In this document: one piece after another, positions 16,581 through 19,278 of the stretch | How the letters are laid out: each line of letters starts with the position of its first letter | Numbering within the stretch: position 1 is the stretch's first letter | Assembly (NCBI GenBank): GCA_963921275.4 | Contig: OZ001293.3 | Location: 4,224,001-4,288,000, forward strand | Origin: an uncultured Hormoscilla sp. | GTDB taxonomy: Bacteria > Cyanobacteriota > Cyanobacteriia > Cyanobacteriales > Desertifilaceae | Direction: 5' to 3' | DNA length: 64,000 bases | The notes under the pieces: generated by a model | Told to the model about the DNA's origin: nothing | Seen by the model: only the letters and a program-made list of their open reading frames with translations | Databases searched by the model: none | Made by a program: the position numbers and the translations under genes

Positions 16581-18190
16581 ATGGCAGACAAGAGATTGCG
16601 TTACTTCGATGGTCAATTTTTACAAGACCAAGATTTCATAGACGAACAGGAATATCACCTCGATCGGGAACGCCGGCCGTTCAAATGCTTGACAGTAGCA
16701 GGAGTTTGTGAGGGTTTGACCGTTACTGCTGGGTCCGGGCAAGTGACTGTAGCGCGAGGGATGGCAATAGATGCTCAAGGTCGGCAAATAGTGCTGGAAT
16801 CACAGGAGGTTGTCGATCTGACGGACCATGTTCCCCAGACTGGACAAACCAAACCAGTGAATCTGTTCGTCGCCTACCACGAAGAAGCCTCAGATCCGGC
16901 AACGGCAGGCAGTCAGGGAAACCGACGCTGGTATGAAAAACCCCAAGTAACGGCGTTGGATGTTAGCGAGTCTCAGCCTAACAATGCAGTGAAGTTGGCC
17001 AAACTGACTGTAGAAGCTGATGGCGATGTGATAGTTGATGCTAGCGTCTGTGAATATTCAGGTCTGCATTTACCCAATGGGAATGGGAATGGGGCGATAT
17101 TGCGCTATCAGAGCGATGGGAATGGCAGTCGCCCCATCCTGACGGGCGATCTAACAGTGAGTGGCAATCTGGGTATCGGCACCACCAGTCCGGAGAAGAA
17201 ACTGCACGTGGAAAGTGGTGAATTGAAAGTCAAAGCTAGCCACAACAATGCGACCGCAGATATCGCGGCTTTCTTAGCTAACAATGGGACGCAAGGAATT
17301 GGCATAGGCTACAACAGGCTCGAAGCGATCGGCAGTAACGAGAACCAGGATATCGAAATGCGTCCGAAAGGAACGGGTACAGTCAAGGTATTGGGGGATT
17401 TGCAAGTTGAAAACAACAAGACTATCAAGTGGAATCGAAATATGAGGCAAATGATTGATTTGTGGGGGACAGAATATGGTATTGGAATCCAGAATCACAC
17501 GCAATATTTTCGCACGGGGATGAATTTTGCCTGGTATAAAAGGGGCAACCATAATGATGGGGAACTGAATGCGGGGGGCGGTACGGTACAATGGTCATCA
17601 AAGATGGCAATGTCGGCATCGGTAAGAACGACCCGAGCACGAAATTAGATGTCGAGGGAGTGGTAACAGCAACGGCGTATGTGGGCAATGGCATAGTCGT
17701 AGCTGGCATGATTGTCATGTGGTCCGGGAGTAGCAGCAATATACCAGCAGGGTGGGCGATGTGTAACGGCGAAAATGGAACACCGGATTTGCGGGATTTA
17801 TTTATCGTCGGCGCGGGAAAAAAATATCAACCGGCGGAAAAAGGGGGGTTGGAGAGAGTGAAATTATCGGAGTTGGAGCTGCCAAAACATCACCATAGCG
17901 GCTCGACGGGCTCCGGCGGAGACCACAATCACGTATGGAATGATGACTTTAGAGACTGGTTGTATATCGGCCAAGGGCACGGCGGCTATCATGATCCTGG
18001 AACGCACGGCGCGGTGTACTGGAAAAATAAAGGGACATGGATACCATTCAATGCGTCAGGCAATATAGGGCAGGATACAAAATACGCATCAGCACATGAG
18101 CATGGATTCTCGACATCAGATGTAGGAGCGGATAAGCACCACGAGAACAGGCCGCCGTACTACGCGATGATATACATAATGAAAATATAG
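16581..18190 (+). pseudogene. eCIS tail fibre (baseplate anchor, GNVGIG repeats, collar/tip domain); 1-nt frameshift at ~17590
   Basis: RLRYFDGQFL..DF.DEQ.YH; GNLGIGT; collar GMIVMWSG..P.GW.MCNG.NGTPDLR; tip HENRPPYYA. Confidence 0.85.
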
Positions 18191-18207
18191 CAAGCAAGGG
18201 AGGAAGA

Positions 18208-19278
18208 TCATCGGGATTTGTTGAACCAAAAACGGGAAAAAACCGAGACAACCGGAAAGTTTTGGAAAACACAAAGCCAACATTCAATGGCAGAAAACAC
18301 CGCGCTAACCTCTTCAACCCCACTACGTACCCACCGCCACCAATGACGCAGATATTCACCAATGCGTTCCACAGACGCACCTTGCTCGTAAAGCCAGTAA
18401 ACCTTCGCCAAACATCTCTCCACCGTCTGAAGGGCTACGGCCAAACCAGAGGGAGAAAACCGATAGCCCAAAAAATCAAAGCCCCGGGAAGTGCGACCGA
18501 TAAAAGACTTATCCGGGTGCGTCTCCAGAAGCAGCACGTCGAGTACCTTATTAACTGCCTTAATGGCCTGGCGCAGCTTCCACCGGGTCGGTGCTAAGAC
18601 CACCCAGTCATCCATGTACCGGACGTGGACGCAGCCCAGTGCCGCCATCCGGTCATCCAAAGGCTTGAGGTAGAGGGCCCCCATCAGGGGTGATAAGGGA
18701 CAACCGAGGGAGATCCCCTGTTGGATAGCGGTAATAGTGCCGCTATCGGCAACCAACCGTTGCTGGTACTGGCGCAGCAGATCCAACAACCGTTCTTCAT
18801 GGACAAATTCGCATAACTGCCGATAGAGAATCTCGTGATTAATGGATGCATAATAGCCCTTGACATCAGTGCGAAAGACAAAATCATATACCCCGACCCG
18901 GGCCGCCACCGCCCGCACGGCCCCCTTGAGTCCGCCAGTCCCGGCCAGATGAAAGCAACGGGAGGATAAATGGGGTTTCAGATGAGCGGTCAAAACCAGA
19001 GACATGGCCTTTAAGACCTTGGCATCCCGTGATGACCACGCTCCGGGCCCCCTCCGCTACTCGACTGTCCGTTCCCGGTCGGGAATTAACCGCAATTCCC
19101 GAAAGCGATAACATCCGGTCAGTAACAGTTGCTGTATGCGCGGTTTTTCTTCATGCCACCACCGGCGGAGGTGCCACACGTCCCCATTAAAGTGATAATG
19201 GGCCCGGGTCCGACACAGCCATTCATAGGCTTGGTCGATAATTTCATCGTCGGCAATTTGGGAGATTAAGTCAGTCAT
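18208..19278 (-). pseudogene. Stand-alone reverse transcriptase, DGR-like motif 4; in-frame TAG at 19057-19059
   Basis: ORFs 19057-19278 and 18208-19005 share a frame; TDVKGYYASI, GISLGCPLSP, RYMDDW, GFDFLGY; no intron domains V/VI nearby. Confidence 0.85.

Follow-up and report, generated by a model that had tools for sequence, protein, structure and literature searches.

In an uncultured Hormoscilla sp., a reverse transcriptase (RT) gene lies tail-to-tail with the tail fibre gene of an extracellular contractile injection system (eCIS), which raises the question of what kind of RT this is and whether its place opposite the fibre tip has a meaning. The locus is part of a stretch of 64,000 nucleotides of contig OZ001293.3 (GenBank assembly GCA_963921275.4, positions 4,224,001 to 4,288,000 of the forward strand). 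We call this whole stretch the window, and plain coordinates refer to it. An earlier note on the same DNA had proposed either the remnant of a diversity-generating retroelement (DGR) or a non-canonical system in which the RT pairs with the 3' end of the gene that it faces, where read-through RNA of the RT gene, antisense to the fibre tip, would serve as template. We find that the local feature is a decayed RT of unknown group 4 (UG4) between the Cis13 fibre and spike-tip genes, tail-to-tail with the fibre. This dead copy belongs to an RT family that is known yet unexplained, and its context is new. Of most interest is the pattern across the family: it shows a widespread two-part arrangement, in which the RT unit is convergent with the 3' end of a gene whose extracellular product has a binding, anchoring or toxin role, and the part of this gene beside the RT is the one that turns over. 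The features at the centre of the locus are the following.

16581..17648, plus strand: eCIS tail fibre (Cis13-like), N-terminal frame; NCBIfam CIS13_fam (NF053767), 5e-16; ends after a 1-nt deletion
17591..18190, plus strand: fibre C-terminal frame (collar motif and tip), facing the RT; Pfam Collar 2.5e-4, below cut-off
18191..18207, no strand: gap of 17 bp between the stop codons of fibre (18188-18190) and RT (18208-18210)
18208..19278, minus strand: UG4-class RT pseudogene; PADLOC RT_UG4, Pfam RVT_1 1e-18, translation

Class of the reverse transcriptase

The RT frame runs on the minus strand from 19278 to 18208 and has 356 codons, with the motifs RYMDDWVV, RGFDFLGYRF and QQGISLGCPLSPL and one in-frame TAG (the plus-strand CTA at 19057-19059). 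On these points (a minus-strand RT with YMDD, GFDFLGY and ISLGCPLSP, one in-frame stop and 17 bp to the fibre stop codon) the earlier note agrees with the sequence. With X at the stop, the translation matches the PADLOC model RT_UG4 at 5.9e-108 over profile positions 3-306 of 307; the next-best RT models are a generic one (3e-37) and UG18 (2.2e-30). The RT_UG4 model is also matched by 24 of 24 aligned family members. UG4 enzymes are compact (about 280-350 aa, YxDD, no additional domain), and the frame in the window, with its 356 codons, YMDD and RVT_1 as sole Pfam domain, is of this kind. No endonuclease domain was found in it with Pfam or NCBIfam. The gene is that of a full-length UG4-class RT, not of a DGR, group II intron or retron RT.

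In the passages on them in PMC2602772, PMC8934634 and PMC9226505, UG4 RTs are a group of the UG/Abi assemblage whose function is unreported. The latter two sources locate them beside chaperone-usher fimbrial genes and on plasmids, with a fimbrial neighbourhood in 66% of the complete-genome cases (PMC8934634, Sharifi & Ye 2022, in its UG4 passage), and the UG4 passage of an older survey has them in Proteobacteria only (PMC4244168). The RT of the window resembles other UG4 RTs in its full-length profile match, in the size range, the YxDD and the absence of an extra domain, in having a surface-structure gene as neighbour and in hints of mobility. It differs from those published in that its neighbour is the fibre of an injection system, while its relatives face genes for eCIS_core, toxin complex (Tc)/RHS, PEP-CTERM and inverse autotransporter proteins. 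Fimbrial genes are not its neighbours according to Pfam and NCBIfam; the fimbrial neighbourhood is a tendency and not the definition of the family. We found no paper that ties an RT to an eCIS and tail fibre, to PEP-CTERM or to DUF4157, although supplementary tables of UG/Abi surveys may list such neighbours; an Akkermansia paper in which RT and PEP-CTERM both occur has no bearing on the matter. Neither the convergent abutting layout nor the variable zone nor the internal motif and hairpin described below are mentioned in the UG4 passages of PMC2602772, PMC8934634 and PMC9226505.

The family is large: one protein search gave 2374 proteins at E<=1e-10, a set that takes in more distant RTs. The close relatives come from Cyanobacteria, Planctomycetota, Verrucomicrobiota, Thermodesulfobacteriota, Pseudomonadota and other phyla, and the occurrence is scattered: in the window's order, 6 of 151 sampled genomes have the RT, including the window's own. 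In a quick tree, which omits 19 RT rows of less than 270 aa, the RT of the window groups with those of Symploca, Dapis and Hormoscilla (Shimodaira-Hasegawa-like approximate likelihood ratio test, SH-aLRT, 96) within a cyanobacterial clade (SH-aLRT 100). This clade mixes fibre, eCIS_core and Tc contexts, and therefore the RT has changed its partner more than once.

The labels "DGR-like" and "DGR remnant" of the earlier note do not hold, and neither does its use of LG in motif 4 as a sign of a DGR. RTs of the DGR clade have [I/L/V]GxxxSQ as motif 4. Here we see SLGCPLSP, with LG present and the ending SP, not SQ. LG is invariant in 24 aligned close relatives, which makes it a trait of the close family that is not specific to DGRs, and the wider family has SSG, PMG, PKG or SYG, with RG on Salmonella and E. 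coli plasmids. The genome-wide search for a copy of the fibre tip that the earlier note had suggested was negative: there is no second copy of 17500-18207 in the 7.03-Mb genome. A sensitive blastn of 16401-19500 against the genome gave no template repeat, no tip-related or template repeat lies within 16400-21500, and none was found in the relatives' loci examined (the repeats that do occur there are outside the variable block, at the flanks of the RT or ahead of paralogous target genes). No Avd-like gene (PF05635) is near the RT; the sole matches, C1:866171-866471 and C1:3938326, are ~3.4 and ~0.3 Mb away from it (near C1:4242200). Rfam over 15500-22500 found no intron, retron or DGR RNA, with one chance-level match (E 0.98). 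These searches bear out what the earlier note had seen by eye, namely no template repeat, no avd gene and no intron RNA domains nearby.

A canonical DGR is rejected on these grounds: the UG4 profile is matched end to end, and there is no template repeat, no nearby Avd and no DGR RNA. A former DGR that has lost its template repeat and avd could explain the LG instead of QG in motif 4 and an RT facing a fibre C-terminus, but the same findings speak against it (in window, genome and relatives' loci alike for the repeat, and within ~0.3 Mb for avd), and intact relatives have the same repeat-less layout. We consider such a remnant extremely improbable.

Group II introns and retrons are rejected as well. 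The RT scores 98.7 bits against the group II maturase model TIGR04416, far under its cut-off of 300, and 32.8 bits against a retron RT model with a cut-off of 235; neither kind of RNA has an Rfam match here. In a search of PDB with the family profile, the nearest solved proteins are group II intron RTs (GsI-IIC RT, 6ar1, 1.5e-29). DRT2, a defence-associated reverse transcriptase (DRT), follows only at 1e-5, and among the 17 matches at E<=1e-3 no chain is named as a DGR RT. With the RTs of group II introns (GsI-IIC, 6ar1) and group II-like (G2L) elements, the RT of the window shares a similar fingers-palm-thumb span besides being nearest in sequence among solved proteins; it differs in having no intron RNA match, no endonuclease domain and a score far under the maturase cut-off.

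Apart from this gene, there are 47 other RT-like matches in the genome. Most are open frames of 400-600 aa that recur as identical copies, which is typical of group II introns. In two cyanobacterial loci, a group II intron (RT, maturase, HNH) is inserted in the UG4 RT gene itself (L044:6992-8656 and L045:5356-7020).

Convergent layout across homologues

Is the arrangement in the window particular to this genome? The order P2_I, fibre, RT on the opposite strand, spike tip and ATPase is common to the window and the loci of Dapis (L018), Microcoleus (L021) and Hormoscilla (L065), and the RT is intact in Dapis and Microcoleus. In eCIS loci that have no RT, the fibre is followed by the tip (L118, L119) or by the ATPase (L117). 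Among 79 homologue loci from species genomes, 14 have eCIS genes.

To count orientations, loci from genomes and metagenomes were pooled and RTs at least 95% identical were merged, which gave 72 clusters, and the longest downstream open reading frame (ORF) was scored. The downstream side could be judged in 61 clusters with at least 700 bp of sequence; related loci among them are not independent.

Downstream of the RT (61 judgeable): convergent 53, same strand 7, no ORF 1; too little sequence in 11
Upstream control: opposite strand 25, same strand 23, no ORF 9; too little sequence in 15

The convergent pattern spans several phyla and unrelated target families, and the stop codon of the facing gene is 2-425 bp from the end of the RT core. 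The upstream neighbours of the RT are heterogeneous. The check that the earlier note had suggested, whether homologues are convergent to the 3' ends of fibres or adhesins, is positive, and its alternative of a non-canonical RT paired with the 3' end of the facing gene gains comparative support (53 of 61 loci). In a Pfam scan of 72 downstream ORFs, we saw the following facing genes.

PEP-CTERM proteins: 12 of 72
eCIS_core (formerly DUF4157), cyanobacterial loci: 7 of 72 by Pfam, 2 more by BLAST, beyond broken RT halves
Collar fibres: 2 of 72, plus 1 more fibre by BLAST
SpvB/TcdB/RHS toxins: 2 of 72
Fib_succ_major protein: 1 of 72
group II introns (secondary insertions): 2 of 72
second halves of broken RTs: 4 of 72
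unrelated enzymes or transposases: several
ORFs with no Pfam match: ~34 (approximate count)

At four loci on Salmonella plasmids, the RT even overlaps the 3' end of an inverse-autotransporter adhesin gene. As a side observation, the cyanobacterial RT/eCIS_core loci L027, L029, L051 and L082 adjoin TnsD/TniQ genes of Tn7-like transposons.

End of the unit and the variable zone

A second regularity concerns the place where conservation of the RT stops.

18319..18321, minus strand: last conserved RT codon (V of WVRSGV), end of the conserved unit; alignment A2, collapse of nucleotide identity

The conserved unit is ~1.1 kb long. It begins ~60-135 bp before the start codon and reaches to the codon that follows WVRSGV. 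A stop codon is not among what is conserved, and the RT frame runs on into the neighbour, which is why the C-terminal tails of the RTs are variable; in the window, the 36 codons past 18319 are such an unconserved read-out tail. In 9 pairwise comparisons the RTs are 85-99% identical; a few bases past the end of the core the identity is down to background, and it comes back after 170-1300 bp, inside the body of the facing gene or beyond. This collapse is seen in eCIS_core loci, in Okeania/Symploca, in Colwellia PEP-CTERM loci, in Salmonella adhesin loci, in a 99%-identical metagenome pair and in the window compared with Hormoscilla.

The fibre of the window fits the pattern. In its N-terminal part (341 aa) it is 77% identical to the intact Hormoscilla fibre of 532 aa, while the tip (last 199 aa) is 39% identical to this orthologue, and there is no nucleotide match over ~17775-18190.

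One Pirellulaceae genome has three paralogous RT/PEP-CTERM pairs. The last 600 nt of their RTs are 96-100% identical, and the targets are conserved again in the anchor and in the N-terminal half. Between them, at target residues 96-158, synonymous differences reach 0.68-0.79 compared with 0-0.38 in the flanks, with scaffold residues retained. Judged by these alignments, the variable block is saturated; it does not look like a few selected point mutations, nor are the differences adenine-specific. A likeness to DGRs (of the Bordetella phage BPP-1 type) is that the RT is linked to the receptor-binding C-terminal end of a fibre or adhesin, that the Q of motif 4 is replaced and that the variable block retains scaffold residues. 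The present case differs from DGRs in that there is no template repeat, no Avd and no RT of the DGR clade, in that the RT is convergent with its target and abuts it, and in that the divergence affects all bases, with saturated synonymous sites and indels.

For L209:4012-4215 and L214:2069-2806, the RT and its upstream flank are 98.5-99.4% identical and the promoter-side flank only 79%; one locus has a full PEP-CTERM gene, and the other only a signal peptide fused in frame to the anchor, with the exported part deleted. On a Salmonella Poona plasmid (L142:1-2682), there is a second inverse-autotransporter gene, and behind it an RT 3' remnant that an IS110 element has cut. The final ~155 bp of the gene, together with this remnant, are a 91% match to another plasmid, and a block of ~410 bp just before does not align. 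Near-identical metagenome pairs yield no mutation spectrum: some do not differ anywhere, and in the others the sequence beside the RT is no longer homologous.

Such a zone could also arise if the RT had no enzymatic role and were a homology arm or a passenger in the exchange of C-terminal cassettes by ordinary homologous recombination. The zone is bounded by the RT core and the conserved body of the facing gene, it holds non-homologous cassettes, and synonymous saturation fits imported alleles as well as hypermutation. C-terminal cassette exchange in polymorphic toxins and fibres (Rhs/CDI-type) is alike in having a conserved body and a swappable C-terminal end; it differs in that the adjoining position is here taken by an RT gene on the opposite strand, not by an immunity gene. 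However, plain recombination leaves unexplained why an RT recurs in convergent position across at least five target families and several phyla, and why a motif and a hairpin are kept at the nucleotide level inside the gene. We think this explanation distinctly unlikely.

A motif and a hairpin inside the coding region

18364..18395, minus strand: conserved motif GGCTTTAYGAGC (18383-18395) followed by a hairpin (18364-18378), in the 3' coding region of the RT

The 12-nt motif GGCTTTAYGAGC lies ~60-75 nt before the end of the unit and is kept at the nucleotide level, synonymous positions included. Of 85 RT loci, 77 have it, and so do the ~40%-identical RTs of Salmonella plasmids. For the hairpin, we counted cells of the alignment of 42 diverse sequences: 82.8% are paired, compared with 73.3 ± 1.6% in shuffles, and 22 are changed on both sides, compared with 9.6 ± 2.8 (0 of 500 shuffles as high in either case). 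In controls in which the hairpin was slid along the sequence, 20-47% are paired. The RNAalifold consensus on RT 3' ends is weak (-6.19 kcal/mol).

RTs of the class 2 UG/Abi type such as DRT2 and DRT9, which copy a neighbouring non-coding RNA, are alike in being compact RTs with a probable cis-encoded nucleic-acid element. The UG4 gene differs in having no conserved flanking non-coding RNA, as conservation ends 60-135 bp upstream and a few bases past the core; its candidate element is inside the coding region, and the UG4 passages of PMC9226505 report no association with defence. The RT might nevertheless be a DRT-like defence gene or an addiction gene in a variable eCIS island, acting in trans and unrelated to the fibre. 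UG4 is one of the UG/Abi RTs, PADLOC lists its model among the DRTs, there are Uma2, HicB, XisH and XisI genes in the region, and an addiction or anti-defence role has been suggested for plasmid-borne UG4 in the passages of PMC9226505 (Mestre et al. 2022). The same passages, however, give no enrichment of UG4 in defence islands, and the tight convergent coupling, overlapping 3' ends included, is unexpected of an independent defence gene. An unrelated defence function is improbable in our view.

Copies and fragments of the unit

The RT unit occurs in several copies in some genomes; counting partial ones, a Desulfobacterales genome has 7 and a Colwellia genome 6. Three pairs of within-genome copies (L081/L083, L092/L095 and L075/L078) are 85-95% identical over the RT unit alone, and both flanks are unrelated. 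Fragments are found as well: four C-terminal ones still face PEP-CTERM-like genes, and one in the window's own genome (C1:972183-972320) faces an eCIS_core-like gene. RTs of different cyanobacterial genera can be 92% identical. Some RTs are flanked by repeats of 87-165 bp, which recur elsewhere in the same loci and are not read as target-site duplications.

These copies and fragments, and the 92% identity across genera, are what a selfish mobile unit of ~1.1 kb would leave, inserting antisense downstream of gene 3' ends, perhaps at terminator-like structures, in accessory loci that tolerate insertion; its link to variable genes would then come from this tolerance only. Retromobility of UG4 has been considered possible, with identity ~100 bp upstream and none downstream, in the passage on UG4 of PMC2602772 (Simon and Zimmerly 2008). 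On the other hand, the facing genes are far from random, as unrelated families have only export, binding or toxin roles in common, and there is no endonuclease domain and no repeat read as a target-site duplication. N- and C-terminal fragments seem about equally common, with no clear sign of the 5'-truncation bias that target-primed retrotransposition would leave, and in several comparisons both outer flanks are syntenic and the zone adjacent to the RT alone differs. Such a selfish unit seems unlikely to us.

A possible role in renewing gene ends

We see it as a serious possibility, somewhat short of probable, that the RT acts in cis on the adjoining zone via an RNA that spans the 3' ends of RT and facing gene. 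The RT would renew the end of the facing gene by copying it or replacing it from complementary DNA (cDNA), and the 12-nt motif with the hairpin may be the recognition site of the enzyme. No separate template repeat would be used, and the change would not be adenine-specific. Where the two genes overlap, the RT mRNA and any read-through from the facing gene would both contain the junction.

A wider reading is put forward tentatively, and we rather doubt it: UG4 may be a second kind of retroelement, free of template repeats, that renews exposed C-terminal ends. The RT would copy RNA across its own 3' end, recognising GGCTTTAYGAGC and the hairpin, the cDNA would be written back, and the tip would be hypermutated or swapped in the process. 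With similar reserve, the proteins concerned could be injection-system fibres and effectors, Tc/RHS toxins, PEP-CTERM proteins, inverse autotransporter adhesins and pilins.

Several points weigh against a role of the RT in cis. The strongest is that such gene families are variable without it: fibre tips, the C-termini of polymorphic toxins and adhesin tips vary in the absence of any RT. Nothing ties the RT causally to the turnover. Much of the zone is non-homologous and differs in length and content (in Okeania/Symploca it holds unrelated ORFs of 243-299 aa), and point mutagenesis cannot produce this. The RT of one E. coli fimbrial operon is encoded on the same strand as the genes around it. 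Most eCIS loci have no RT; in the window's order the fibre occurs in 17 and the RT in 6 of the 151 genomes, and among these the RT adjoins the fibre in the window's genome only. Two of the four fibre-linked RTs are broken (that of the window, and that of L065 with an internal deletion). The longer hairpin was set by eye on the same sequences on which it was then counted, which favours it, and the wobble cells do not single out one strand (24 fit the sense strand only and 15 the antisense strand only). Finally, contigs from two runs of one study, which may be the source data of the assembly itself, have 0 differences over 16581-19480 and thus no fibre-tip variants; the only variants come from a paralogous fragment at 19155-19237, and such contigs are blind to rare variants.

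If the pairing with fast-changing gene ends does reflect the role of the enzyme, it would be a new bacterial route to retarget injection systems, toxins and adhesins, and a compact natural tool for local diversification with no separate template. Even if the RT is a passenger, an unexplained family becomes open to tests through the rule of convergent layout (53 of 61), the abrupt end of the unit and the motif within it, which also show where the variable ends of eCIS fibres and effectors lie.

Decay of the local copy

19037..19060, minus strand: 24-nt GC-rich dispersed repeat in the fingers region of the RT, holding the TAG (19057-19059)
21210..21294, minus strand: second RT N-terminus remnant, frameshifted; 88% nucleotide match to 19155-19237, overlaps the ATPase fragment 20943-21245

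The stop codon in the RT stems from the insertion of a repeat and not from a point mutation. The repeat adds six codons that are absent in 23 of 23 aligned homologues, and the same sequence of 22-33 nt is present at 14 or more other sites of the genome, in some cases as inverted pairs (copies include C1:576996, 1492779, 2229056, 4338671, 511046, 3759050 and 5848315-5848363). With this TAG-bearing repeat, the RT is probably inactive here, as the earlier note had thought possible. Compared with the intact Hormoscilla orthologue, the fibre gene has lost 1 nt between 17590 and 17591, which splits it in two; the site is not a homopolymer run. The baseplate J-like gene (10447-14146) is split as well, into two overlapping frames near 12605, where relatives have a single ORF of 717-1250 aa. 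Judged by its reading frames, with the RT cut by a repeat with a stop and the fibre and baseplate genes frameshifted, the RT module is dead in this genome. The copy in the window is a pseudogene and is therefore of little consequence for the host organism.

In-frame G-rich inserts of 8 aa are found at a different position in some RT homologues (rows P0004, P0008, P0034, P0078 and P0084 of alignment A2) and may be a similar phenomenon. A 54-bp stretch between RT and Uma2 (19345-19398) has many partial copies in the genome at 72-89% identity and looks like a small dispersed repeat.

The surrounding eCIS locus

19481..20095, plus strand: Uma2-family putative endonuclease, divergent from the RT; Pfam Uma2 6.1e-39
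20213..20638, plus strand: CIS spike-tip gene; Pfam CIS_spike_tip 3e-38; directly after the fibre in the RT-less loci L118 and L119

With Pfam and NCBIfam, matches across 2147-32652 make up a complete eCIS cluster, which comprises two sheath genes, tube genes, a LysM/tube protein, gpD hub, spike, gp25, baseplate J, Tail_P2_I, the CIS13-family fibre, two CIS_spike_tip genes, an AAA ATPase and two eCIS_core genes. The locus is that of an extracellular or phage-tail-like contractile injection system. The earlier note had placed the RT in the eCIS operon between the fibre and spike-tip genes; the context stands, but the RT does not directly adjoin the tip, as Uma2 intervenes. The divergent Uma2-RT pairing is also present in the nearest relative of the RT, Symploca (L019:7217-7840). 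The two may be a linked pair, or this may be coincidence in Uma2-rich cyanobacteria.

The gap of 18191-18207 contains no terminator-like site and lacks the room for a terminator. A promoter and terminator scan of 17900-19600 gave counts not above those of shuffles, with none on the RT strand upstream of the RT.

The accessory part of the eCIS locus (20213-25400) is rearranged, with two spike-tip genes (20213-20638 and 23208-23642), fragments of the ATPase N-terminus at 20943-21245 and 23917-24309, and inserted XisI/XisH (21686-22602) and HicB (24658-25095) genes. Outside the locus, a small contig of the assembly (C3, 31,420 bp) has a G+C content of 17.6% compared with 47.4% for the chromosome and may be foreign DNA or a contaminant. 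A protein resembling FG-GAP, RTX and TcdB-mid-N proteins is encoded at 72-1637, immediately before the sheath genes.

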